This document shows positions 4,973 to 55,500 of a DNA stretch of 64,000 nucleotides, in pieces. Origin of the DNA: Shigella phage SH7; the sequence record KX828711. The stretch is one strand, 5' to 3'. The notes under the pieces are model-generated. The model had not been told where the DNA came from, ran no database searches, and worked only from the letters and a program-made list of their open reading frames with translations. A program made the translations under genes and the position numbers. How positions within the stretch are numbered: the first letter of the stretch is position 1; each line of letters starts with the position of its first letter.

Positions 4973-5653
4973 TTATTTTAATGTTACGAAAGAAGAATTG
5001 CGTGTTTCACGAATTAAAACTGATCCATCGCGATTAATGTAATAAATTAAGCTAAATAAAGTTTGGTGCGCTGACGCATGTTCAAAACTAGTTGGGTGAG
5101 ATTTCCAATCCGGAGTTTCAGCAATCCATTGATAAATCCACCAAGGAACAGTACAGAATCCTGGATTTTTTCCAATCAGCTGAAGATTCGGACTAAAGTT
5201 TTCTGGAAGAGTAAATACAGACGGCTTTTCAGATTCAATAATCTCAGCTACAGCCTGTTCAAACTTTTCTTCAACAAAGGGAGTATCTTCAATCAAAACA
5301 TAGGTATTTTCAGGAATTTTATCCGTTTCTACTACTTCAATTTTAATGTCAGATTTAACTGGAGAATCAATCAGAAGTGCTGCTTCTGGATTGACTTCTT
5401 CATCGTCATATTTTAATCCCTCTGCGGCATCAGCAGCATCAATTAAGTCTTTAATAGATAACCCATCAGTCTCTGGCATAGGTTCACTAGCGAGCTTCTG
5501 GAGGGCTTCTTCAATATCAGCAACGATATTATCAAAAGATTTATTCTTTTTGACCTTTATACCAAACTGTTCAGCATATTCAGCTAATTTAGCTTTAGCT
5601 TCTTTGTTATCATCAAGAGCCTTCAGCTCTGCAATATAATCTTTATCTATCAT
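4973..5653 (-). CDS. inh: Inh, inhibitor of prohead protease (by position)
   Basis: 226 aa acidic protein between hoc and uvsW, the T4 inh position. Confidence 0.6.
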   Translation of the reverse strand: MIDKDYIAELKALDDNKEAKAKLAEYAEQFGIKVKKNKSFDNIVADIEEALQKLASEPMPETDGLSIKDLIDAADAAEGLKYDDEEVNPEAALLIDSPVKSDIKIEVVETDKIPENTYVLIEDTPFVEEKFEQAVAEIIESEKPSVFTLPENFSPNLQLIGKNPGFCTVPWWIYQWIAETPDWKSHPTSFEHASAHQTLFSLIYYINRDGSVLIRETRNSSFVTLK

Positions 5654-5666
5654 AATATTTCCTCAG

Positions 5667-5674
5667 TATAAATA
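5667..5674 (+). promoter_or_regulatory. Late promoter for uvsW
   Basis: TATAAATA 30 nt upstream of the uvsW ATG. Confidence 0.7.
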
Positions 5675-5703
5675 TAGATATATTTATTACATGGTATTTA
5701 GAC

Positions 5704-7215
5704 ATGACTGACATTAAAGTACATTTTTATGATTTTAGTCACGTGAGAATTGATTGTGAAGAAAGTACATTTCATGAACTCCGTGATTTCTTTAGCTTTG
5801 AAGCTGATGGGTATCGTTTTAATCCGAAATACAAATATGGCCACTGGGATGGACGAATCCGTCTTTTAGATTATAATCGCCTTCTTCCATTCGGCTTAGT
5901 CGGGCAAATTAAAAAGTTCTGTGATAACTTTGGCTATAAAGCCTGGATTGACCCACAAATTAACGAAAAAGAAGAATTATCAAGAAAAGATTTTGATGAA
6001 TGGCTTTCTAAATTAGAAATCTATTCAGGAAATAAAAGAATTGAACCACACTGGTATCAAAAAGATGCAGTGTTCGAAGGATTAGTTAATCGTCGTAGAA
6101 TTCTTAATCTTCCAACATCCGCCGGTAAATCTTTAATTCAAGCTTTGCTTGCACGTTATTATTTGGAAAATTATGAAGGTAAAATTCTTATCATTGTTCC
6201 AACAACTGCTTTAACAACTCAGATGGCTGATGACTTCGTTGACTATCGTTTATTCAGTCATGCAATGATAAAGAAAATCGGTGGAGGAGCATCAAAAGAT
6301 GATAAATATAAAAATGATGCACCAGTCGTTGTTGGTACATGGCAAACTGTAGTAAAACAACCAAAAGAATGGTTCTCACAGTTTGGAATGATGATGAATG
6401 ATGAATGCCATCTTGCTACAGGAAAAAGTATTTCATCTATCATATCAGGTTTAAATAACTGCATGTTCAAATTTGGTCTATCTGGTTCATTACGTGATGG
6501 CAAAGCCAATATCATGCAGTATGTTGGAATGTTTGGTGAAATATTTAAGCCAGTAACGACTTCTAAGTTAATGGAAGATGGACAAGTAACTGAGCTAAAA
6601 ATTAATAGTATTTTTCTTCGCTATCCCGATGAGTTCACTACTAAATTAAAGGGAAAAACTTATCAAGAAGAAATAAAAATTATTACGGGGCTTAGTAAAA
6701 GAAATAAATGGATCGCTAAATTAGCTATTAAGCTTGCGCAAAAAGATGAAAACGCTTTTGTCATGTTTAAACATGTATCGCATGGTAAAGCTATTTTCGA
6801 TTTAATTAAAAATGAATACGATAAAGTTTATTACGTATCAGGAGAAGTTGATACCGAAACCCGCAATATAATGAAAACCTTAGCTGAAAATGGTAAAGGA
6901 ATAATTATAGTAGCTAGTTATGGTGTATTTTCTACTGGTATTTCAGTTAAAAATCTGCATCACGTTGTTTTAGCGCACGGTGTTAAATCTAAAATTATTG
7001 TATTGCAAACAATCGGTCGTGTATTACGTAAGCATGGTTCTAAGACAATAGCAACAGTCTGGGACCTCATAGATGATTGTGGCGTTAAGCCAAAATCTGC
7101 TAATACGAAAAAGAAATATGTTCATTTGAACTATCTTTTAAAACACGGCATTGATCGTATTCAGCGCTACGCAGATGAAAAATTTAATTACGTAATGAAA
7201 ACAGTTAATTTATAA
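5704..7215 (+). CDS. uvsW: UvsW DNA/RNA helicase
   Basis: 503 aa; helicase motifs LPTSAGKS (Walker A) and MMMNDECH (DExH-type); T4 UvsW N-terminus MTDIKVHFYDFSHVRID. Confidence 0.93.
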   Translation: MTDIKVHFYDFSHVRIDCEESTFHELRDFFSFEADGYRFNPKYKYGHWDGRIRLLDYNRLLPFGLVGQIKKFCDNFGYKAWIDPQINEKEELSRKDFDEWLSKLEIYSGNKRIEPHWYQKDAVFEGLVNRRRILNLPTSAGKSLIQALLARYYLENYEGKILIIVPTTALTTQMADDFVDYRLFSHAMIKKIGGGASKDDKYKNDAPVVVGTWQTVVKQPKEWFSQFGMMMNDECHLATGKSISSIISGLNNCMFKFGLSGSLRDGKANIMQYVGMFGEIFKPVTTSKLMEDGQVTELKINSIFLRYPDEFTTKLKGKTYQEEIKIITGLSKRNKWIAKLAIKLAQKDENAFVMFKHVSHGKAIFDLIKNEYDKVYYVSGEVDTETRNIMKTLAENGKGIIIVASYGVFSTGISVKNLHHVVLAHGVKSKIIVLQTIGRVLRKHGSKTIATVWDLIDDCGVKPKSANTKKKYVHLNYLLKHGIDRIQRYADEKFNYVMKTVNL

Positions 7216-44909: not shown

Positions 44910-44917
44910 TATAAATA
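44910..44917 (+). promoter_or_regulatory. Late promoter for gene 34
   Basis: TATAAATA 34 nt upstream of the gene 34 ATG. Confidence 0.75.
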
Positions 44918-44951: not shown

Positions 44952-47900
44952 ATGGCCGAGATTAAAAGAAAGTTCAGAGCAGAAGATGGTCTGGACGCAG
45001 GTGGCGATAAAATAATCAACGTAGCTTTAGCTGATCGTGCCGTAGGAACTGACGGTGTTAACGTTGATTACCTAATTCAAGAAAACACAGTTCAACAATA
45101 CGATCCAACTCGTGGATATTTAAAAGATTTTGTAATCATTTATGATAACCGTTTTTGGGCTGCTATAAATGATATTCCAAAACCAGCGGGAGCTTTTAAT
45201 AGCGTACGCTGGAGAGCATTACGTACTGATGCTAATTGGACAACTGTTTCATCAGGACCTTATCAATTAAAGTCAGGTGAATCAATTTCAGTTAATACTG
45301 CAGCAGGAAATGATATCACATTTACTTTGCCAACTTCTCCAATTGATGGAGATACTATCGTTCTTCAAGATATTGGTGGAAAACCCGGAGTTAACCAAGT
45401 TTTAATTGTAGCTCCAGTGCAAAGTATTGTAAACTTTAGAGGCGAACAAGTACGATCAGTACTAATGACCCATCCAAAATCACAGATAGTTTTAATTTTT
45501 AGTAATCGTCTGTGGCAAATGTATGTGGCTGATTATAGCAGAGAAGCGGTAGTTGTGACGCCAGCAAGTCTCTACCAGGCGCAGTCAAACGATTTTATCG
45601 TGCGCAGATTTACTTCTGCTGCACCGATAAATATTAAACTTCCGAGATTTGCTAATCATGGCGATATTATTAATTTCGTTGATTTAGATAAATTAAATCC
45701 TCTTTATCATACAATTGTTACTACATATGATGAAACTACATCAGTACAAGAAGATGGAACTCATTCCATTGAAGGCCGTACATCTATTGATGGTTTCTTG
45801 ATGTATGATGATAATGAGAAATTATGGAGATTATTTGACGGGGATAGTAAAGCACGTTTACGTGTTATAACAACTAATTCTAATATTCGTCCAAACGAAG
45901 AAGTTATGGTATTTGGTGCGAATAATGGAACAACTCAAACAATTGAACTTCAGCTTCCGACCGATATTTCCATTGGCGATACTGTTAAAATTTCCATGAA
46001 TTACATGAGAAAAGGCCAAACAGTTAAAATCAAAGCTGCCGGTGAAGATAAAATTGCTTCTTCAGTTCAATTGCTGCAATTCCCAAAACGTTCAGAATAT
46101 CCGCCTGAGGCTGAATGGGTGACTGTTCAAGAATTAGTTTTTAACGGTGAAACTAATTATGTTCCAGTTTTACAACTTGCTTATATAGAAGATTCTGACG
46201 GAAAATACTGGGTTGTACAGCAAAACGTTCCAACAGTTGAAAGAGTCGATTCTTTAAATAATTCTACTAGAGCAAGATTAGGCGTAATTGCTTTAGCTAC
46301 ACAAGCTCAAGCTAACGTCGATTTAGAAAATTCTCCACAAAAAGAATTAGCAATTACCCCAGAAACATTAGCTAACCGTACTGCTACAGAAACTCGTAGA
46401 GGTATCGCAAGAATAGCAACTACCGCCCAAGTGAATCAGGATACTACATTCTCTTTTGCTGACGATATTATCATCACTCCTAAAAAGCTGAATGAAAGAA
46501 CTGCTACAGAAACTCGTAGAGGTGTTGCTGAAATTGCTACGCAACAAGAAACTAATACAGGTACTGATGATACTACGATCATCACTCCTAAAAAGCTTCA
46601 AGCTCGTCAGGGTTCTGAATCATTATCTGGTATTGTAACTTTTGTATCTACTGCAGGTGCTACTCCAGCTTCTAGCCGTGAATTAAATGGTACGAATGTT
46701 TATAATAAAAACACTAATAATTTAGTTGTTTCACCTAAAGCTTTGGATCAGTATAAAGCTACTCCAACACAACAAGGTGCGGTAATTTTAGCAGTTGAAA
46801 GTGAAGTAATTGCTGGACAAAGTCAGGAAGGATGGGCAAATGCGGTTGTAACACCAGAAACGTTACATAAAAAGACATCAACTGATGGAAGAATTGGTTT
46901 AATTGAAATTGCTACGCAAAGTGAAGTTAATACAGGAACTGATTATACCCGTGCAGTCACTCCTAAAACTTTAAATGACCGTAGAGCAACTGAAAGTTTA
47001 AGTGGTATAGCTGAAATTGCTACACAGGTTGAATTCGACGCAGGCGTCGACGATACTCGTATCTCTACACCATTAAAAATTAAAACCAGATTTAATAGTA
47101 CTGATCGTACTTCTGTTGTTGCTCTATCTGGATTAGTTGAATCAGGAACTCTCTGGGACCATTATACCCTTAATATTCTTGAAGCAAATGAGACACAGCG
47201 TGGTACACTTCGTGTAGCTACACAGGTCGAAGCTGCTGCAGGAACATTAGATAATGTTTTAATAACTCCTAAAAAGCTTTTAGGTACTAAATCTACTGAA
47301 GCACAGGAAGGTGTTATTAAAGTTGCAACTCAGTCTGAAACTGTGACTGGAACATCAGCAAATACTGCTGTATCTCCAAAAAATTTAAAATGGATTGTGC
47401 AGAGCGAACCTACCTGGGCAGCTACTACTGCGATAAGGGGATTTGTTAAAACTTCATCTGGTTCAATTACGTTCGTTGGTAATGATACAGTCGGTTCTAC
47501 TCAAGATTTAGAACTGTATGAGAAAAATAGCTATGCAGTATCACCATATGAATTAAACCGTGTATTAGCAAATTATTTGCCATTAAAAGCAAAAGCTGTA
47601 GATAGTAATTTATTGGATGGTCTAGATTCATCTCAGTTCATTCGTAGGGATATTGCGCAGACAGTTAATGGTTCACTAACCTTAACCCAACAAACGAATC
47701 TGAGTGCCCCTCTTGTATCATCTAGTACTGCTACGTTTGGTGGTTCAGTTTCGGCAAATAGTACATTGTCTATTTCTAACACTGGAACGACTTCTTCTCG
47801 ATTTACATTTGAGAAAGGTCCTGCTTCTGGTAGTAATGCTGATTCTGCATTGCATGTTCGTGTATGGGGTAATAAGTACAGCGGCGGTTCTGATGTAACT

Positions 47901-48824
47901 CGCGCAACGATTATAGAATTCTATGATGCTTCCGGCACTCATTTCTATTCTCAAAGAGATACGTCAAATAATGTGTTGTTCAACATTTCAGGTACGATGC
48001 AATCAGTCCATGCTAGCGTTCGTGGTGTTCTGAACGTTACAGGTGTCTCAACGTTTAATAGTTCAGTTACAGCCAATGGTGAATTCATTAGCAAGTCTGC
48101 AAATGCATTTAGAGCAATTAGTGGTGATTATGGATTCTTTATCAGGAATGATGGTGGCAGCACATATTTTATGCTTACTGCATCAGGCGATCAGACTGGC
48201 GGATTTAATGGATTACGTCCTTTAGCTATTAATAATGCATCCGGTCAAGTAACGATTGGTGAAAGCTTAATCATTGCCAAAGGTGCTACTATAAATTCAG
48301 ATGGTTTGACTGTTAACTCGAGAATTCGTTCTCAAGGTGTTAAAACATCTGACTTATATACCCGTGCGCCAACATCTGATACTGTAGGATTCTGGTCAAT
48401 CGATATTAATGATTCAGCCACTTATAACCAGTTCCCGGGTTATTTTGAAATGGTTGAAAAAACTAATGAAGTGACTGGGCTTCCATACTTAGAACGTGGC
48501 GAAGAGGTTAAATCTCCTGGTACATTGACTCAGTTTGGTAACACACTCGATTCACTTTACCAAGATTGGATTACTTATCCAACGACTCCAGAAGCACGTA
48601 CCACTCGCTGGACGCGTACATGGCAGAAAACCAAAAACTCTTGGTCAAGTTTTGTTCAGGTATTTGATGGAGGTAACCCTCCTCAGCCATCTGATATCGG
48701 TGCTTTACCATCTGATAATGCTATAATGGGGAATCTTACTATTCGTGATTTCTTACGAATTGGTAATGTTCGCATTATTCCTGACCCAGTGAATAAAACG
48801 GTTAAATTTGAATGGGTTGAATAA
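44952..48824 (+). CDS. 34: Long tail fibre proximal subunit gp34
   Basis: 1290 aa (T4 gp34 1289 aa); MAEIKRKFRAEDGLDAGGDKIINVALADR; internal repeats. Confidence 0.95.
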   Translation: MAEIKRKFRAEDGLDAGGDKIINVALADRAVGTDGVNVDYLIQENTVQQYDPTRGYLKDFVIIYDNRFWAAINDIPKPAGAFNSVRWRALRTDANWTTVSSGPYQLKSGESISVNTAAGNDITFTLPTSPIDGDTIVLQDIGGKPGVNQVLIVAPVQSIVNFRGEQVRSVLMTHPKSQIVLIFSNRLWQMYVADYSREAVVVTPASLYQAQSNDFIVRRFTSAAPINIKLPRFANHGDIINFVDLDKLNPLYHTIVTTYDETTSVQEDGTHSIEGRTSIDGFLMYDDNEKLWRLFDGDSKARLRVITTNSNIRPNEEVMVFGANNGTTQTIELQLPTDISIGDTVKISMNYMRKGQTVKIKAAGEDKIASSVQLLQFPKRSEYPPEAEWVTVQELVFNGETNYVPVLQLAYIEDSDGKYWVVQQNVPTVERVDSLNNSTRARLGVIALATQAQANVDLENSPQKELAITPETLANRTATETRRGIARIATTAQVNQDTTFSFADDIIITPKKLNERTATETRRGVAEIATQQETNTGTDDTTIITPKKLQARQGSESLSGIVTFVSTAGATPASSRELNGTNVYNKNTNNLVVSPKALDQYKATPTQQGAVILAVESEVIAGQSQEGWANAVVTPETLHKKTSTDGRIGLIEIATQSEVNTGTDYTRAVTPKTLNDRRATESLSGIAEIATQVEFDAGVDDTRISTPLKIKTRFNSTDRTSVVALSGLVESGTLWDHYTLNILEANETQRGTLRVATQVEAAAGTLDNVLITPKKLLGTKSTEAQEGVIKVATQSETVTGTSANTAVSPKNLKWIVQSEPTWAATTAIRGFVKTSSGSITFVGNDTVGSTQDLELYEKNSYAVSPYELNRVLANYLPLKAKAVDSNLLDGLDSSQFIRRDIAQTVNGSLTLTQQTNLSAPLVSSSTATFGGSVSANSTLSISNTGTTSSRFTFEKGPASGSNADSALHVRVWGNKYSGGSDVTRATIIEFYDASGTHFYSQRDTSNNVLFNISGTMQSVHASVRGVLNVTGVSTFNSSVTANGEFISKSANAFRAISGDYGFFIRNDGGSTYFMLTASGDQTGGFNGLRPLAINNASGQVTIGESLIIAKGATINSDGLTVNSRIRSQGVKTSDLYTRAPTSDTVGFWSIDINDSATYNQFPGYFEMVEKTNEVTGLPYLERGEEVKSPGTLTQFGNTLDSLYQDWITYPTTPEARTTRWTRTWQKTKNSWSSFVQVFDGGNPPQPSDIGALPSDNAIMGNLTIRDFLRIGNVRIIPDPVNKTVKFEWVE
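46378..46600 (+). repeat. Tandem repeat of about 120 bp inside gene 34
   Basis: CTGCTACAGAAACTCGTAGAGGT recurs at 46381 and 46501; ATCATCACTCCTAAAAAGCT recurs at about 46470 and 46578. Confidence 0.6.
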
Positions 48825-48832
48825 GAGGTATT

Positions 48833-49948
48833 ATGGAAAAATTTATGGCAGAGTTTGGACAAGGATATGTCCAAACGCCATTTTTATCGGAAAGTAATTC
48901 AGTAAGATATAAAATAAGTATAGCGGGTTCTTGCCCGCTTTCTACAGCAGGACCATATGTTAAATTTCAGGATAATCTTGTCGGAAGTCAAACATTTAGC
49001 GCAGGTCTTCATTTAAGAGTTTTTGACCCTTTCACTGGAGCATTAGTTGATAGTAAGTCATATGCTTTTTCGACTTCAAATGATACTACATCAGCTGCTT
49101 TTGTTAGTTTCATGAATTCTTTTTCAAACAATAGACTTGTTGCTATATTAACTAGCGGAAAGGTTAATTTTCCTCCTGAAGTAGTATCTTGGTTAAGAGC
49201 AGCAGGAACATCTGCTTTTCCATCTGATTCTTTATTGTCAAGATTTGACGTATCATATGCTGCCTTTTACACTTCTTCTAAAAGAGCTATCGCACTAGAG
49301 CATGTTAAACTGAGTAACAGAAAAAGCACAGATGACTATCAAACTATATTAGATGTAGTATTTGATAGTTTAGAAGATGTTGGAGCGACAGGATTTCCTA
49401 AAAGAACATATGAAAGCGTTGAGCAATTTATGTCAGCAGTCGGTGGAACTAATAACGAAATTGCACGTCTACCTACAGCATCTGCAATAAGTAAACTTTC
49501 TGACTATAATTTAATTCCTGGAGATGTTCTTTATCTTAAAGCACAACTATATGCTGATGCTGATTTATTAGCGTTGGGAACTACTAATATTTCAATTCGT
49601 TTTTATAATGCGTCGAATGGATATATTTCCTCGACACAAGCTGAGTTTACCGGACAAGCTGGGTCTTGGGAATTAAAAGAAGATTATGTAGTTGTTCCAG
49701 AAAATGCAGTTGGATTTACGATATACGCACAGAGAACTGCACAAGCGGGTCAAGGCGGTATGAGAAATTTAAGCTTTTCTGAAGTGTCAAGAAATGGTGG
49801 CATTTCAAAACCTGCTGAGTTTGGCGTCAATGGTATTCGAGTTAATTATATCTGTGAATCTGCTTCACCTCCGGATATAATGGTACTTCCTACGCAAGCA
49901 TCGTCTAAAACTGGTAAAGTGTTTGGACAGGAATTTAGAGAAGTTTAA
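48833..49948 (+). CDS. 35: Long tail fibre hinge protein gp35
   Basis: 371 aa (T4 gp35 372 aa); follows gene 34. Confidence 0.85.
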   Translation: MEKFMAEFGQGYVQTPFLSESNSVRYKISIAGSCPLSTAGPYVKFQDNLVGSQTFSAGLHLRVFDPFTGALVDSKSYAFSTSNDTTSAAFVSFMNSFSNNRLVAILTSGKVNFPPEVVSWLRAAGTSAFPSDSLLSRFDVSYAAFYTSSKRAIALEHVKLSNRKSTDDYQTILDVVFDSLEDVGATGFPKRTYESVEQFMSAVGGTNNEIARLPTASAISKLSDYNLIPGDVLYLKAQLYADADLLALGTTNISIRFYNASNGYISSTQAEFTGQAGSWELKEDYVVVPENAVGFTIYAQRTAQAGQGGMRNLSFSEVSRNGGISKPAEFGVNGIRVNYICESASPPDIMVLPTQASSKTGKVFGQEFREV

Positions 49949-49979: not shown

Positions 49980-49987
49980 TATAAATA
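49980..49987 (+). promoter_or_regulatory. Late promoter for genes 36-37-38
   Basis: TATAAATA 23 nt upstream of the gene 36 ATG. Confidence 0.75.
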
Positions 49988-50010: not shown

Positions 50011-50667
50011 ATGGCTGATTTAAAAGTAGGTTCAACAACTGGAGGCTCTGTCATTTGGCATCAAGGAAATTTTCCATTGAATCCAGCCGGTGACGATGTA
50101 CTCTATAAATCATTTAAAATATATTCAGAATATAATAAACCACAAGCTGCTGATAACGATTTCGTTTCTAAAGCTAATGGTGGTACATATTTAAATAAAG
50201 TAATTTTTAATAAAGGAATGACTGTTCCTGGTGCTGGGTCAGGTGACAACGGTATTTTTGCCGGTCCTGGTGATAATGCTACATATGATACTACAAATAT
50301 GGATATTGTTTCATGGTATGGTATCGGCTTTAAATCATCACAAGGGGCAGCAGGTAGAACTGTAGTAATTAACACACGAAACGGAGATATTAGCTCAAAG
50401 GGTGTAATTGAAGCATCACAAATACGCGCAACTTCGTTATCACCAGTAAATAATTATGACCTTACGAGAAAAGATTATGTTGATGGAGCAATAAATATTG
50501 TTACAACAAATGCAAACTCTAGAGTATTACGCTCTGGAGACACTATGACAGGAAATTTAACTGCGCCAAACCTTTTTTCACAGAATCCTGCATCTCAACC
50601 CTCGCATGTTCCGCGATTTGACCAAATCGTAATTAAGGATTCTGTTCAAGATTTCGGCTATTATTAA
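50011..50667 (+). CDS. 36: Long tail fibre distal connector gp36
   Basis: 218 aa (T4 gp36 221 aa); syntenic. Confidence 0.85.
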   Translation: MADLKVGSTTGGSVIWHQGNFPLNPAGDDVLYKSFKIYSEYNKPQAADNDFVSKANGGTYLNKVIFNKGMTVPGAGSGDNGIFAGPGDNATYDTTNMDIVSWYGIGFKSSQGAAGRTVVINTRNGDISSKGVIEASQIRATSLSPVNNYDLTRKDYVDGAINIVTTNANSRVLRSGDTMTGNLTAPNLFSQNPASQPSHVPRFDQIVIKDSVQDFGYY

Positions 50668-50675
50668 GAGGACTT

Positions 50676-53600
50676 ATGGCTACTTTAAAACAAATACAAT
50701 TTAAAAGAAGCAAAACGGCAGGTCAACGTCCAGCTGCTTCAGTATTAGCCGAAGGTGAATTGGCTATAAACTTAAAAGATCGTGTACTTTTTACTAAAGA
50801 TGATCAAGGAAATATTATTGACTTAGGTTTTGCTAAAGGCGGTAGTATTGACGGGAATGTTATTCATAAAGGCAATTATAACCAAACTGGCGATTATACT
50901 TTAAACGGTACATTCACCCAGACTGGTAATTTTAATTTAACCGGTATTGCTCGAGTAACTCGTGATATTATTGCTGCTGGGCAGATTATGACTGAAGGCG
51001 GAGAACTTATTACAAAAAGTTCAGGAACGGCACACGTTCGTTTTCATGATTCCGCCGACCGTGAACGCGGTATTATTTTTTCTCCTGCTAATGACGGTTT
51101 AACTACACAGGTAGTTAACATCAGAGTTCAAGATTACAAAGCTGGTTCAGAAAGCACTTTCGCTTTTAATGGAAATGGTTTGTTTTCTTCACCAGAAGTT
51201 TTTGGGTGGAAATCTGTATCAACTCCGGTAATTTATACCAATAAAGTTATCACCAATAAAAAAGTTAAAGATGATTATGACATCTATTCGACGGCAGACA
51301 ATGTTCCATTGTCTGAAAGCACTACTGCTATTAATCATCTTCGTGTTATGCGTAATGCAGTTGGTTCTGGTATTTTCCATGAAGTTAAAGATAATGATGG
51401 AATAACATGGTATAGTGGAGATGGATTAGACGTTTATCTTTGGTCATTTACTTGGAGCGGCGGAATTAAATCAAGTCACTCAATTTCCATCGGTTTAACA
51501 CCCGGACCTAAGGATTACTCAATATTAGGACCGTCTAGTATCGCTTTAGGAGATAATGATACTGGATTTAAATGGCATCAAGACGGATATTATTTCAGTG
51601 TTAACAATGGCACAAAAACGTTTTTATTTAGTCCCAGCGAAACAACTAGCCTAAGAAAATTTGTAGCTGGATATTCTACTAACGGAACCGATTTAACTAC
51701 TCCTCCAACTGAAAATTATGCTCTTGCTACTGTAGTGACATACCATGATAATAACGCGTTTGGGGATGGTCAGACTCTTTTAGGATATTATCAAGGCGGT
51801 AACTATCATCACTATTTCCGCGGTAAAGGTACCACAAACATTAATACTCACGGTGGTTTGTTAGTTACTCCTGGTAATATTGATGTTATTGGCGGTTCTG
51901 TTAATATCGATGGTAGAAATAATGCTTCTACAGCGATGTTTAAAGGTAACACAACAGGTAGTAGTTCTGTGGATAACATGACAATTTCCGTTTGGGGCAA
52001 TACGTTTACTAATCCTAGTGTAGGTAATCGTAAAAACGTCATGGAAATTTCTGATGCAACTAGCTGGATGAGTTATATTCAAAGACTTACAACAGGTGAA
52101 GTAGAAATGAACGTTAACGGTTCATTTGAATCATCTGGTGTTACTGCTGGAAATAGAGGAGTTCACACAACGGGCGAAATTTCATCTGGGGCTGTGAATG
52201 CGCTTCGTATTTGGAACGCAGATTATGGAGCTATTTTTAGACGTTCAGAAGGCAGTCTTCATATTATTCCAACTGCTTACGGTGAAGGTAAATATGGCGA
52301 TATCGGTCCACTTCGCCCGTTTAGTATGGCTTTAGATACCGGTAAAGTTACTATTCCAGATTTACAATCAAGTTACAATACGTTTGCTGCTAACGGTTAT
52401 ATTAAATTTGTTGGTCATGGAGCGGGTGCCGGCGGTTATGACATTCAATATGCTCAAGCGGCTCCTATTTTCCAGGAAATTGATGATGATGCTGTAAGCA
52501 AATATTATCCTATTGTTAAACAGAAGTTTTTAAATGGTAAAGCTGTTTGGTCTTTAGGTACTGAAATTAGTTCAGGTACATTCGTTATTCATCATCTGAA
52601 AGAAGATGGTTCACAAGGCCATACGTCTCGTTTTAATCAAGACGGTACTGTTAACTTCCCAGATAACGTTTCTGTCGGCGGCGGTGAAGCTACTATTGCT
52701 CGCAATGGTAATATCTGGTCTGATATCTGGAAAACGTTTACTTCAGCAGGCGACGTAACTAATATTCGCGATGCAATAGCTACTCGTGTTGCTAAAGAAG
52801 GTGATACGATGACCGGTAGGTTGACTTTATCTGCTGGAAATGATGCCCTTGTTTTAACTGCAGGCGCGGGTGCTTCATCGCACATCCGTAGTGATGTAGG
52901 TGGTACAGGTAACTGGTATATAGGCAAAGGCGGCGGCGACAATGGTCTAAGTTTTTACAGTTACATTACACAAGCCGGTGTGAACATAACAAATAACGGC
53001 GAAATAGCGCTTTCTCCTCAAGGACAAGGAGCGTTTAATTTTAATAGAGACCGCCTTCATATAAACGGTACACAATGGGTTGCGCATAAATCTGGCGCCT
53101 TTGGTGACCAATGGAGTTTAGAAGCTCCGATATTTATAGATTTTGGTAGTGTCAGTAATGACTGCTATTATCCTATTATTAAAGGAAAATCTGCTATTAC
53201 TAATGAAGGATACATATCTGGTGTTGATTTTGGTATGCGTCGTATCACTAATAACTGGGCGCAAGGTATTATTCGTGTAGGTAACCAGGAAAACGGTTCT
53301 GACCCACAAGCTGTATATGAATTTCACCATAACGGAACTCTGTATGTTCCTAACATGGTTAAAACTGGAGCAAGATTATCAGCTGGCGGCGGCGACCCGG
53401 TGTGGACTGGGCCATGTCTTGTTATTGGTGATAATGATACTGGTTTAGTCCATGGCGGTGATGGCCGAATCAATATGGTTGCCAATGGTGTTCATATTGC
53501 TTCATGGTCATCTGCTTATCATCTCCATGAAGGTCTTTGGGATACTACTGGTGCTTTGTGGACTGAGCAAGGAAGAGCTATTATTTCTTTTGGTCATTTA

Positions 53601-53987
53601 ATCCAACAGAGTGATGCCTATTCTACATTTGTCCGTGATGTTTATGTCCGTTCTGATATTCGCGTTAAAAAAGACCTCGTTAAATTTGAAAATGCTTCTC
53701 AGAAGCTTTCTAAAATTAACGGTTACACTTATATGCAGAAGCGAGGCCTGGATGAGGAAGGTAATCAGAAATGGGAACCTAACGCTGGTTTAATTGCTCA
53801 AGAAGTTCAAGCTATTTTACCAGAATTAGTTGAAGGCGACCCTGATGGTGAAGCTTTACTTCGTTTGAACTATAACGGTGTAATTGGTTTAAATACAGCT
53901 GCAATCAATGAGCATACTGCAGAAATTGCGGAACTTAAATCAGAAATTGAAGAACTTAAAGCATTAGTTAAATCATTGTTAAAATAA
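50676..53987 (+). CDS. 37: Long tail fibre distal subunit gp37 with C-terminal intramolecular-chaperone-like domain
   Basis: 1103 aa; last ~110 aa (from S993, [10 protein letters not shown]...) resemble the self-cleaving chaperone domain of phage fibre and endosialidase proteins; T2-type arrangement with the gene 38 adhesin. Confidence 0.88.
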
Positions 53988-53991
53988 TAAG

Positions 53992-54007
53992 AGGGGCTTC
54001 GGCCCCT
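53992..54007 (+). promoter_or_regulatory. C(UUCG)G hairpin between genes 37 and 38, next to the gene 38 RBS
   Basis: AGGGGC-TTCG-GCCCCT directly after the gene 37 stop; no T-tract; GGAGG RBS follows. Confidence 0.5.
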
Positions 54008-54018
54008 TGGAGGTTTAT

Positions 54019-54813
54019 ATGGCAGTAACAGGACCGTGGGTAGGATCGTCTGCAGTAGTTAATACAGGACAAAATTGGATGGGCGGCGCGGCCCAACGAT
54101 TAAGAATGGGTGCTCCATTTTGGATGAGTAATATGATAGGTCGATCTGTTGAAATAATTCACACGCTTGGAGCAGACCATAACTTCAATGGTCAATGGTT
54201 CCGAGATAGATGTTTTGAGGCAGGTAGTGCACCTATAGTGTTTAATATCACCGGAAATTTGGTATCATATTCCAGAGACGTTCCTTTATTCTTCATGTAC
54301 GGAGATACACCTAATGAATATGTTCAATTAAATATTGGTGCTGGAGCTCATATGTGGGGTAGAGGTGGACAAGGTGGATGGACTCATTCTGGTGGAGATG
54401 GTAATGGTCAACAGGGTGGACATTGTATTCAAAATGACATTGGTGGTCGATTAAGAATTAATAACGGCGGAGTAATTTGTGGCGGTGGTGGCGGTGGTGG
54501 CGGTATCGCTTATCGTCCTCACTCTGGTGCAAACTGGCAGGATATTGGTGGCGGTGGAGGAAGACCATTTGGCCCAGGAGGTGGCGGTGGTTATTCAGGA
54601 GGTGCTGCTTCTTATGACGGCCCAGGAGGTGGTTATAATTATGGTAATGCTCATTCTGGCCAGGGCGGTGATGCTGGCGCAAATGGACAAAATGCCTGGC
54701 ATGATGGCGGTAAAGTACTAAAAGTCGGTGCTGGCGGGGCCGCAGGTTATGCTGTCATAGGGTCTGCTCCAACATGGCAAAATGTTGGAATAATATATGG
54801 TCCAAGAGTATAA
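54019..54813 (+). CDS. 38: gp38 receptor-binding adhesin (T2-type, glycine-rich)
   Basis: ATG at 54019 ([20 protein letters not shown]...; ORF track begins at an upstream TTG); several Gly-rich motifs ([22 protein letters not shown]). Confidence 0.85.
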
Positions 54814-54843
54814 TTTGAATAAATATCCTTAAAAGGAGGGTCT

Positions 54844-55500
54844 ATGGCAGCACCTAGAATATCATTTTCGCCCTCTGATATTCTGTTTGGTGTTCTAGAT
54901 CGCTTGTTCAAAGATAACGCTACCGGGAAAGTTCTTGCTTCCAGGGTAGCTGTCGTAATTCTTTTGTTTATAATGGCGATTGTTTGGTATAGGGGAGATA
55001 GTTTCTTTGAGTACTATAAGCAATCAAAGTATGAAACATACAGTGAAATTATTGAAAAGGAAAGAAATGCACGCTTTGAATCTGTCGCCCTGGAACAACT
55101 CCAGATAGTTCATATATCATCTGAGGCAGACTTTAGTGCGGTGTATTCTTTCCGCCCTAAAAACTTAAACTATTTTGTTGATATTATAGCATATGAAGGA
55201 AAATTACCTTCAACAATAAGTGAAAAATCACTTGGAGGATATCCTGTTGATAAAACTATGGATGAATATGCAGTTCATTTAAATGGACGTCATTATTATT
55301 CCAACTCAAAATTTGCTTTTTTACCAACTAAAAAGCCTACTCCCGAAATAAATTACATGTACAGTTGTCCATATTTTAATTTGGATAATATCTATGCTGG
55401 AACAATAACTATGTACTGGTATAGAAATGATCATATAAGTAATGACCGCCTTGAATCAATATGTGCTCAGGCGGCCAGAATATTAGGAAGGGCTAAATAA
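54844..55500 (+). CDS. t: Holin T
   Basis: 218 aa as in T4 holin; one transmembrane segment (VAVVILLFIMAIVWY) and large periplasmic domain. Confidence 0.93.
   Translation: MAAPRISFSPSDILFGVLDRLFKDNATGKVLASRVAVVILLFIMAIVWYRGDSFFEYYKQSKYETYSEIIEKERNARFESVALEQLQIVHISSEADFSAVYSFRPKNLNYFVDIIAYEGKLPSTISEKSLGGYPVDKTMDEYAVHLNGRHYYSNSKFAFLPTKKPTPEINYMYSCPYFNLDNIYAGTITMYWYRNDHISNDRLESICAQAARILGRAK

Follow-up and report, generated by a model that had tools for sequence, protein, structure and literature searches.

Genes 37 and 38 of Shigella phage SH7 form, with a probability of roughly 0.9, a standard T-even receptor-recognition module of the T2/T6/S16 type, i.e., a gp37 fibre protein tailed by a chaperone domain together with a gp38 adhesin, for which cleavage, docking and use of OmpA are predicted from homologues. 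The DNA analyzed here (the window) comprises 64,000 nucleotides and corresponds to the last 64 kb of the genome of this published Tequatrovirus, with published ORF coordinates offset by a fixed 100,870. Both SH7 and the two ORFs have been published (PMC5238451) and the architecture of the module is already known. Indeed, this architecture, the cleavage of gp37, the construction of gp38 from glycine-rich motifs (GRMs) and hypervariable segments (HVSs), and recombinational swapping were all described between 1986 and 2018 and refined up to 2026, and that understanding is unchanged by our results. Analysis of SH7 adds to it a mosaic allele, a predicted OmpA receptor, a crossover located in flanking DNA, and a single true repeat. 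The SH7 sequence itself shows the domain make-up of the two proteins, the conserved residues, the structural homology and the mosaicism.

The gp37 fibre protein and its C-terminal domain

Gene 37 (50676..53987, + strand) encodes the precursor of the distal long-tail-fibre subunit, an ORF of 1103 aa that takes in the chaperone domain at its C-terminus. Both T4 and T2 gp37 align with its N-terminal ~640 aa, and Pfam placed Gp34_trimer at aa 450-550 and Peptidase_S74 at aa 993-1052. A BLAST search of gp37 against itself detected no internal domain duplications at E < 1e-3, and an NCBIfam scan of gp37 and gp38 returned zero family matches.

In a preliminary description, the last ~110 aa of gp37, beginning with the serine codon at 53652, were likened to self-cleaving intramolecular chaperones. 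This proposal was upheld by Pfam, homology to S16, residue conservation and fold matches. The Peptidase_S74 match (PF13884; E 2.3e-12, 47.5 bits vs. a cutoff of 22) starts exactly at Ser993, with the complete domain spanning 111 aa (aa 993-1103; 53652..53984, + strand). A homologue of this domain is present in the S16 gp37 construct (E 5e-34), whose chaperone domain has 113 residues and a known cleavage site (PMC7917993). By alignment of SH7 DVYVR/SDIRVKK to the reported S16 site DLNVS/SDRRIKK, autocleavage is predicted between Arg992 and Ser993 (53649..53654, + strand), so that the serine picked out in the preliminary description is the very residue aligned with the S16 site (PMC7917993). In the homologue MyRF, the cut falls directly N-terminal of the equivalent serine (PMC8326128). 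Ser993 (53652-53654, TCT) and Lys998 (53667-53669), both on the + strand, have the Ser-x4-Lys spacing of a predicted catalytic pair and, together with Asp994, are invariant across 10 aligned sequences (alignment A1). Querying a word index for homologues of the chaperone domain yielded only 13 matches, mostly shortened 170-aa ORF calls, which sufficed for alignment.

An AF2 model of the chaperone domain, built as a monomer and of moderate confidence (pLDDT 68), was compared with known structures using Foldseek. All of the top 10 matches were IMC/ICA structures (MyRF ICA, endoNF IMC, GA-1 IMC), of which MyRF 7DC3 alone was significant (E 5.5e-5); endoNF 3GW6 was a weak match (E 0.13) and 3GUD was also among the top matches. 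This fold search was needed to establish the link with 3GW6 and 3GUD, because a PDB sequence search with the chaperone domain alone retrieved only S16 gp37, MyRF and the phage fibre 8JOV, and did not reach endoNF, T5 pb1 or GA-1. The domain ends in a long alpha-helix (aa ~1066-1102; 53871..53984, + strand; AF2 helix 107-143 of the fragment, pLDDT 85-93) which, by analogy with MyRF and endoNF, is a probable trimeric coiled coil. Within the region coding for this helix, TRF reported a 21-nt periodicity at 53920-53960.

Upstream of the predicted cut, the distal tip of mature gp37 (aa ~914-992; 53415..53651, + strand) ends in DVYVR and aligns with residues 27-92 of 6F45_A (E 1.5e-43). On the basis of the S16 structure, this tip is the predicted docking platform for gp38 (PMC6851490; PMC7917993). 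In T2 and T6, gp37 undergoes C-terminal cleavage, after which gp38 caps it (Trojet 2011, PMC3157838, citing Drexler 1986). In the published LC-MS/MS table of SH7 virions, gp34 and gp36 are present, with gp37 and gp38 not among the entries considered here.

The gp38 adhesin and its expression

Gene 38 (54019..54813, + strand) encodes the receptor-recognising adhesin, a protein of 264 aa followed by a TAA stop codon (54811-54813). Glycine makes up 26.5% of the protein, whose sequence matches SH7 tail fiber adhesin P0001 at 100% identity. The preliminary description was accurate in all of its coordinates and sequences, including the length of gp38 and the position of the gp37 Ser993 codon (53652-53654), and its identification of gp38 as an adhesin, not a chaperone of the T4 kind, was borne out. 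Two adhesin Pfam families together span the full length of the protein i.e., Gp38_N (PF21721) at aa 1-40 (E 1.6e-21, 76 bits vs. a cutoff of 25) and GP38 (PF05268) at aa 45-264 (E 5e-68). Sequence matches were obtained to the PP01 gp38 receptor-binding domain (PDB 9V85, E 2e-72) and to S16 gp38 (6F45_D, E 2.5e-52), and these two were also the only structural matches of the AF2 model (pLDDT 86), with TM scores of 0.72-0.79 when normalised to the query and 0.83-0.86 when normalised to the target. BLASTP against T4 gp38 (183 aa) found no similarity, with a best E value of 0.77 over 20 residues. T2 gp38 aligned with the SH7 protein from end to end at 41% identity. The label "T2-type" given previously is apt for the architecture but not for kinship, the nearest relatives being wV7, RB32 and FL08, not T2. 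The N-terminal attachment domain (Gp38_N, aa 1-40; 54019..54138, + strand) carries Trp7, Trp20 and Trp35, which align with the tryptophans of S16 gp38; in that protein, the three residues insert in pockets of gp37 (PMC6851490).

The genes are ordered 36-37-38-t, as in F1, AR1, RB32, wV7 and T2. A GGGGC-UUCG-GCCCC tetraloop hairpin (53991..54008, + strand; -17.7 kcal/mol, z -2.35), with no T-run 3' of it on the + strand, separates the stop codon of gene 37 from the ribosome-binding site of gene 38; it is followed by a Shine-Dalgarno GGAGG (54009..54013, + strand) that was read from the sequence 5 nt 5' of the ATG at 54019. A TTG at 54007 was rejected as the start codon because it lies inside the hairpin and upstream of the Shine-Dalgarno; the ATG at 54019 yields the conserved MAVTGPW and the deposited SH7 protein. 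No TATAAATA late-promoter box was found directly before gene 38, the closest on the + strand being at 49980 and 44910. With no such box upstream, and no T-run accompanying the hairpin on the coding strand, a late promoter or terminator belonging to gene 38 itself was rejected. We therefore treated genes 36-37-38 as co-transcribed, and they probably constitute a single late transcript.

The specificity cassette and its glycine-codon runs

An entropy and glycine-conservation profile of 102 gp38 proteins delineated a receptor-specificity cassette, a polyglycine sandwich, at aa 106-253 (54334..54777, + strand). The preliminary description had noted a conserved N-terminus and glycine-rich motifs separating variable segments, and in the profile blocks of invariant glycine indeed alternate with high-entropy segments. 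We regard this alternation as real because it was seen over all 102 aligned proteins. Within the cassette, which contains the invariant glycine columns (alignment A2), the approximate, alignment-derived boundaries in gp38 residues are GRM1 113-120, HVS1 121-132, the GRM2 block 133-162, HVS2 163-176, GRM3 177-185, HVS3 186-212, GRM4 213-220, HVS4 221-238 and GRM5 239-248. At the amino acid level, the SH7 cassette is 98% identical to that of wV7/KIT03, 93-94% identical to those of FL08 and AV119, and 49-59% identical to the T6, M1, FL18 and Ac3 types.

Runs of glycine occur at aa 155-162 (G8; 54481-54504), 177-181 (G5), 187-191 (G5) and 203-205 (G3). The repeated glycine codons around 54480-54620 had been described as simple-sequence DNA, which holds for one stretch but not for the rest. 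TRF identified a true tandem array, (GTGGCGGTG)x2.9, at 54479..54504 on the + strand (period 9, 2.9 copies, 100% match), which codes for the G8 helix (aa 155-162) and is the sole such repeat, whereas the remaining GGCGGTGGT copies are isolated, imperfect and 11-21 nt long. In another contig (L008), canonical gene 38 homology stops exactly within the G8 tract, where it is joined to sequence of the gp37 tip and chaperone domain.

Mosaic origin of gene 38

Gene 38 of SH7 is a natural mosaic, in which the fibre and codons 1-105 are AR1-like and the cassette (codons 106-253) is RB32/wV7/FL08-like. When gene 37 was compared with its AR1 counterpart in 33 bins of 100 nt, nucleotide identity was 82-100% in 31 of them, and 77% at 53076-53175. 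The region coding for the gp38 attachment domain was 97-100% identical to AR1 vs. 53-77% to RB32, and codons 1-~101 were mostly 87-100% identical to AR1. The cassette, however, shared only 20-77% nucleotide identity with AR1; compared with RB32 and wV7 in blocks of 10 codons, it was 89-97% identical in most and 77-87% identical in four. The change occurs in the conserved beta-helix core (aa ~49-105, ending in NEYVQLNI; 54163..54333, + strand), which is near-identical in nucleotide sequence in AR1, RB32 and wV7 and is where the 5' crossover probably took place: AR1, RB32, wV7 and the window share exact matches of 41-83 nt in this region, and it is here that likeness to AR1 stops and likeness to RB32 starts. 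On its 3' side, the module is bordered by the conserved gene t, encoding a holin (54844..55500, + strand; Pfam Phage_holin_T, E 2e-117). Nucleotide identity to every phage compared was 90-98% in the bin at 54776-54875, and at least 92% (mostly 96-100%) from 54876.

The crossover that can be detected in SH7 thus lies in conserved flanks and not in the glycine codon runs. This bears on the suggestion, made in the preliminary description and published much earlier as a hypothesis (Tetart et al., 1998, as cited in PMC3157838), that glycine-codon runs support the swapping of variable segments, according to which the SH7 allele would have been built by crossovers within glycine-rich motifs. The G8 tract at 54479-54504 does provide microhomology, being the only exact match of at least 14 nt within the cassette to gene 38 of AR1 or T2, which are adhesin genes of other receptor classes, and the L008 join falls exactly inside it; moreover, an engineered CM8 x EV240 recombinant swapped gene 38 only "from HVS2 onwards" (bioRxiv 10.64898/2026.04.02.716166). 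Yet the shared microhomology extends over just 15-22 nt, all four HVSs of SH7 belong to the RB32/wV7 lineage, and the only detectable junctions lie in the conserved stretches of 41-83 nt that border the cassette. [quoted passage not shown] An origin of the SH7 allele at glycine runs is consequently unlikely. HVS-by-HVS mosaicism within the SH7 gene was rejected for the comparisons made, the four HVSs sharing one lineage.

Prediction of the receptor

That the module determines which outer-membrane receptor is used, as stated in the preliminary description, is established for gp37/gp38 in the literature (PMC3157838; PMC12032242). RB32 requires OmpA and LPS (PMC3157838), and FL08 and AV119 require OmpA (PMC12032242). 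Of its 148 positions, the SH7 cassette has 9-10 that differ from FL08 and AV119; in the sequences as aligned, RB32 gp38 has three cassette substitutions, and its overall identity to SH7 gp38 is 91%. Given that the cassette is of the RB32/FL08/AV119 type and that these relatives are OmpA-dependent, OmpA is the predicted receptor of SH7, most likely bound via a cassette of the "type 1 OmpA" class. As a single HVS substitution, Q206L, is known to switch specificity from OmpF to OmpW (bioRxiv 10.64898/2026.04.02.716166), the 9-10 differences make OmpA a strong prediction, short of certain.

A receptor other than OmpA i.e., OmpC, as in the AR1/PP01 lineage, Tsx, OmpF or LPS, appears distinctly improbable. 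Such a receptor would accord with the AR1-like character of gp37 and gp38 residues 1-105, since PP01-type gp38 binds OmpC (PMC12892980), with the ease with which single HVS substitutions switch porin specificity (bioRxiv 10.64898/2026.04.02.716166), and with the sensitivity of RB32 to LPS composition (PMC3157838). Specificity, however, maps to the HVS cassette, which in SH7 is 93-98% identical to those of wV7, FL08 and AV119, and OmpA dependence has been demonstrated experimentally for FL08, AV119 and RB32. Given the low identity of the cassette to AR1 (20-77% at the nucleotide level), the receptor class is predicted to differ from that of AR1/PP01.

SH7 is polyvalent, infecting E. coli K-12, O157:H7, Shigella and S. 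Paratyphi. If it uses OmpA, the reported tolerance of the "type 1" gp38 class for all OmpA loop variants tested would fit this broad host range. Tentatively, two linked readings can be considered: the chimera of an AR1-type fibre shaft and gp38 attachment domain with an RB32/wV7 "type 1" OmpA-binding cassette could underlie polyvalency, and the (GGCGGTGGT)n tract could be a natural hotspot for illegitimate joining of adhesin genes, the L008 contig, in which the 5' half of a gene 38 ends inside that tract, being an example.

Proposed mechanism

In the mechanism that we propose for the SH7 module, gp37 would be synthesised as a precursor of 1103 aa, of which the 111-aa Peptidase_S74 domain would trimerise via its C-terminal coiled coil and template folding of the triple beta-helix upstream. 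The chaperone domain would then excise itself by a Ser993- and Lys998-dependent cut between Arg992 and Ser993, and its loss would bare the blunt ...DVYVR tip of gp37. A single gp38 monomer is predicted to dock on this tip through W7, W20 and W35 of its N-terminal helical bundle. Gp38 itself is a beta-helix bearing a polyglycine-II sandwich, the lattice of which is made by the conserved glycine-rich motifs, with the hypervariable segments as distal loops that would touch the outer-membrane receptor. The allele is a recombinant, with an AR1-like shaft and gp38 attachment domain joined to an RB32/wV7-like cassette in the conserved beta-helix core. By deciding to which bacteria a T-even phage can attach, the module offers phage therapy and diagnostics their main means of predicting host range or of re-engineering it. 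Although homologues in the wV7 and HY03 records are labelled "distal long tail fiber assembly catalyst", it is extremely improbable that gp38 acts like its T4 namesake, as an assembly chaperone that helps gp37 to fold and is absent from the virion, with gp37 bearing the receptor-binding tip, because those labels are inherited from T4 nomenclature, gp38 has no sequence similarity to T4 gp38 (E 0.77) and matches adhesin Pfam families and both solved adhesin structures over its full length, and gp37 ends in a removable chaperone domain instead of the T4-type C-terminal needle domain.

Comparison with known systems

The S16 gp37-gp38 tip complex (PDB 6F45; Dunne et al., 2018) is encoded in the same gene order as in SH7. 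Its gp37 tip and chaperone domain are homologous to those of SH7 (E 1.5e-43), with VS/SDRRIKK aligned to VR/SDIRVKK, and its gp38 is a full-length homologue (E 2.5e-52, TM 0.79-0.83) of about 45% identity. Both gp38 proteins have the three tryptophans, the G8 helix and a GGGGGRP motif. S16 differs in its hypervariable loops, in its target, Salmonella OmpC, and in the size of its chaperone domain (113 vs. 111 aa).

The "type 1 OmpA" adhesins of RB32/RB33, wV7, KIT03, FL08 and AV119 (Trojet 2011; Lutz 2025) are 263-266 aa long and have a cassette like that of SH7, whereas aa 1-48, the SH7 attachment domain, belong to a different lineage (identity of 53-77% to RB32 in nucleotides and of 81% to wV7 in amino acids) and RB32 gp37 is largely unrelated to SH7 gp37 past the first ~100 nt. 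Conversely, the OmpC binder AR1/PP01 (9V85) has the same gp38 fold as SH7 (TM 0.72-0.86) but a different cassette.

T2 gp37 has a homologous C-terminal chaperone domain with the SD-R-K motif (YIRSDIRLK), and its processing has been shown biochemically (Drexler 1986, cited in PMC3157838); T2 differs from SH7 in its gp38 (41% identical), its receptors (FadL/OmpF) and the length of its gp37 (1341 aa). In T4, the locus also lies between gene 36 and gene t, and gp37 is homologous to that of SH7 over its N-terminal ~640 aa, but gp38 (183 aa) is an unrelated chaperone and gp37 has its own receptor-binding tip, without Peptidase_S74.

Finally, endoNF (3GW6), GA-1 gp12 (3GUD), the MyRF ICA (7DC3) and MEROPS S74 have in common with SH7 the Pfam family and the C-terminal helix. 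The Ser-x4-Lys pair corresponds to S911/K916 in endoNF, S587/K592 in MyRF and S993/K998 in SH7 gp37. The endoNF, GA-1 and MyRF domains are 12-24% identical to that of SH7, whose passenger is a T-even fibre beta-helix and not a sialidase or transcription factor.

Location of the gene 37-38 region in the SH7 genome

Gene 37 (+ strand, 50676-53987; 3,312 nt, 1103 aa) is followed by gene 38 (+ strand, 54019-54813; 795 nt, 264 aa), which begins with the ATG at 54019 behind a Shine-Dalgarno GGAGG read from the sequence at 54009-54013 (+ strand). With gp34, gp35 and gp36 on the upstream side and the holin gene t downstream, as assigned by Pfam, the region is a T4-like long-tail-fibre locus. The window corresponds to SH7 genome positions 100,871-164,870, up to the genome end; after subtraction of the constant offset of 100,870, ORF238 (145822-149694) and ORF239 (150881-151537) of the published 164,870-bp genome (PMC5238451) coincide exactly with gp34 (44952-48824) and gp36 (50011-50667). 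Furthermore, gp38 is 100% identical to the SH7 'tail fiber adhesin' (P0001). In a phage BLAST collection without SH7, the top match to 53000-55000 reached 91.8%, the best neighbours of the window being at ~95%.

All coordinates in the preliminary description, which had proposed a T2-type host-range module here, agreed with the sequence; its observation is confirmed and its interpretation supported. The biology was already known, in a published phage: the SH7 authors named ORF241 as gp37 ('95% identical to AR1') and ORF242 as a gp38 adhesin ('95% identical to wV7') with no T4 gp38 homology (PMC5238451). What remains of value is the predicted receptor, together with the chimeric structure mapped here.

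T4 late-promoter boxes (TATAAATA) were found on the + strand just upstream of gene 36 (49980-49987) and gene 34 (44910-44917), with none before gene 37 or gene 38 on that strand. This arrangement implies that genes 36, 37 and 38 share a late transcript; the 12 occurrences in the whole window are not above chance (mean 9.2). The hinge protein gp35 (48833-49948) matched Pfam ILEI (PF15711; interleukin-like EMT inducer, a FAM3-type domain) at aa 58-123 (E 4.4e-7, 30.7 bits vs a cutoff of 27). Gene 37 ends in a double stop, TAATAA, and the hairpin GGGGC-UUCG-GCCCC at 53991-54008 precedes the gene 38 ribosome-binding site. By RNA folding this tetraloop hairpin is very stable (-17.7 kcal/mol, z -2.35), and the coding strand has no T-run after it. 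The hairpin may serve RNA stability or translational coupling, like elements first described between T4 cistrons.

gp38 is a predicted adhesin with a five-GRM/four-HVS architecture

A T4-type assembly chaperone was the alternative identity for gp38, and T4 gp38 showed no similarity to it (E 0.77). The adhesin assignment, by contrast, held along the full length: Pfam identified Gp38_N at aa 1-40 (E 1.6e-21) and GP38 at aa 45-264 (E 5e-68), T2 gp38 aligned end to end at 41% identity, and PDB sequence matches were obtained to 9V85 (PP01 gp38 receptor-binding domain, E 2e-72) and 6F45_D (S16 gp38, E 2.5e-52, residues 1-261). An AlphaFold2 model (pLDDT 86) likewise matched the folds of these two PDB structures only, with TM scores of 0.72-0.79 (query-normalised) and 0.83-0.86 (target-normalised), the next match having an E of 2.7. 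The three S16 tryptophans that plug gp38 into gp37 (PMC6851490) align with SH7 Trp7, Trp20 and Trp35.

Glycine makes up 26.5% of gp38, with runs of G8 (aa 155-162), G5, G5 and G3. In an entropy profile of 102 aligned full-length gp38 sequences, five blocks had near-zero entropy, i.e., aa 113-120 (WGRGGQGG), 133-162, 177-185 (GGGGGRPFG), 213-220 (SGQGGDAG) and 239-248, with high entropy between them. This pattern of conserved Gly-rich motifs (GRMs) and hypervariable segments (HVSs), also noted in the preliminary description, reproduces the five-GRM/four-HVS scheme of Trojet et al. (PMC3157838), with boundaries that are approximate here. 'HVS3' holds extra Gly stretches, since the S16 structure shows ten short PGII helices.

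Mosaic origin of the gene 38 allele

Nucleotide identity to six phages was determined in 100-nt and 10-codon windows. Gene 37 and codons 1-~101 of gene 38 were AR1-like (mostly 87-100%), whereas between codons ~106 and ~253 AR1 dropped to 20-77% identity and RB32 and wV7 stood at 89-97% in most blocks, and at 77-87% in four. RB32 gp37, in contrast, is largely unrelated (16-63% after the initial 100 nt), and identity to the RB32 attachment domain is 53-77%. The allele thus joins a fibre and attachment domain of AR1 type to a specificity cassette of RB32/wV7 type. Codons 49-105, and the sequence from codon ~250 into gene t, are nearly identical in all lineages; the 5' crossover would lie somewhere in 54163-54333. 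The homologue P0042, a further case of the same modularity, joins the SH7 attachment domain (48/48 identical) to a T6-like cassette (53% identical).

Gene 37 of phage Ec_MI-02 lacks the whole 600-nt (200-aa) stretch 52676-53275 and is 100% identical from 53376 onward; fibre-shaft modules are evidently subject to in-frame gain or loss. Proteins P0104-P0107 from Klebsiella-associated contigs (~175-179 aa) combine the Gp38_N domain (...FWMSNMIG) with an unrelated C-terminal domain that is not Gly-rich, so the docking module also occurs with another type of receptor-binding head. Several database entries (P0108-P0113) bear the annotation 'tail fiber domain-containing protein [Escherichia coli]'; each is an ORF call of 170-250 aa starting at an internal Met of gp37, a piece of a phage fibre entered under a bacterial assembly.

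Gly-codon runs as possible sites of exchange

Gly-codon repeats around 54480-54620 had been proposed to support swapping of the variable segments, an idea published earlier (Tetart 1998, as cited in PMC3157838). TRF detected one true array, at 54479-54504 (9 nt x 2.9, 100%); the other copies are short and imperfect. Within the cassette, this array is the sole exact match of at least 14 nt (15-22 nt) to gene 38 of AR1 or T2; the flanks share exact matches of 41-83 nt with relatives. In an E. coli-labelled contig (L008, ABMKHH010000064.1), gene 38 homology stops inside the 54479-54504 tract and continues as gp37-tip and chaperone-domain sequence. Its 303-aa ORF (5001-5912; P0089) joins gp38 residues 1-156 to gp37-tip and Peptidase_S74 chaperone sequence, the junction falling exactly within the poly-Gly tract of (GGTGGCGGT)n, and lies downstream of a 1140-aa gp37-like gene; the 3' flank resembles the Krischvirus/Tequatrovirus phages KFS-EC and G37-3. 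The join is a recombination junction of natural origin, located at the Gly-codon repeat; the fusion ORF is possibly a dead remnant. This contig, and an engineered recombinant for which a 2026 preprint (bioRxiv 10.64898/2026.04.02.716166) reports exchange 'from HVS2 onwards' only, make such swapping plausible, but nucleotide-identity windows gave no indication of exchange between individual HVSs in this allele, and in the comparisons made such exchange did not shape this window. Only whole-cassette exchanges were recovered by Trojet et al. (PMC3157838).

The specificity cassette predicts OmpA as receptor

The SH7 cassette is 98% identical to those of wV7 and KIT03 and 93-94% identical to those of FL08 and AV119; RB32 gp38 is 91% identical overall, with three cassette substitutions in the aligned sequences. 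Identity was only 49-59% to T6 (Tsx), M1, FL18 (type 2 OmpA) and Ac3. FL08 and AV119 did not plate on ΔompA, and their 'type 1' adhesins accepted all eight OmpA variants tested (PMC12032242); RB32 requires OmpA and is LPS-sensitive (PMC3157838). Because of these cassette relationships, OmpA is the predicted SH7 receptor, with a probability of roughly 0.75 since single HVS changes can switch porin specificity (bioRxiv 10.64898/2026.04.02.716166).

The gp37 C-terminus resembles intramolecular chaperones

The codon at 53652-53654 is Ser993 of gp37, with 111 residues from there to the end, and Pfam Peptidase_S74 begins at this residue (E 2.3e-12). The last 118 aa matched an S16 gp37 construct (E 5e-34); weak matches were to the MyRF ICA domain and to one further phage fibre. 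S993, D994 and K998 were invariant in a 10-sequence alignment with identity down to 34%. A model of aa 960-1103 had a pLDDT of 68 (74-93 in the domain), and its ten best PDB fold matches were all among the MyRF ICA (E 5.5e-5), endoNF IMC (3GW6) and GA-1 IMC (3GUD). Sequence and model together point to an intramolecular chaperone.

The Ser-x4-Lys spacing of S993/K998 equals that of S911/K916 in endoNF and S587/K592 in MyRF, which is cut immediately before the equivalent serine (PMC8326128). S16 gp37, with a 113-residue chaperone domain, has a reported cleavage site of DLNVS/SDRRIKK (PMC7917993), with which SH7 aligns as DVYVR/SDIRVKK. Owing to the S74 start, the S16 and MyRF alignments and the conserved Ser-Lys pair, Ser993, the serine singled out in the preliminary description, is exactly the expected cleavage residue, and gp37 would be cut at Arg992/Ser993. 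Whereas T4 gp37 has no chaperone domain of this type, T2 gp37 carries YIRSDIRLK in the equivalent position, and Drexler et al. demonstrated its C-terminal processing in 1986 (as cited in PMC3157838).
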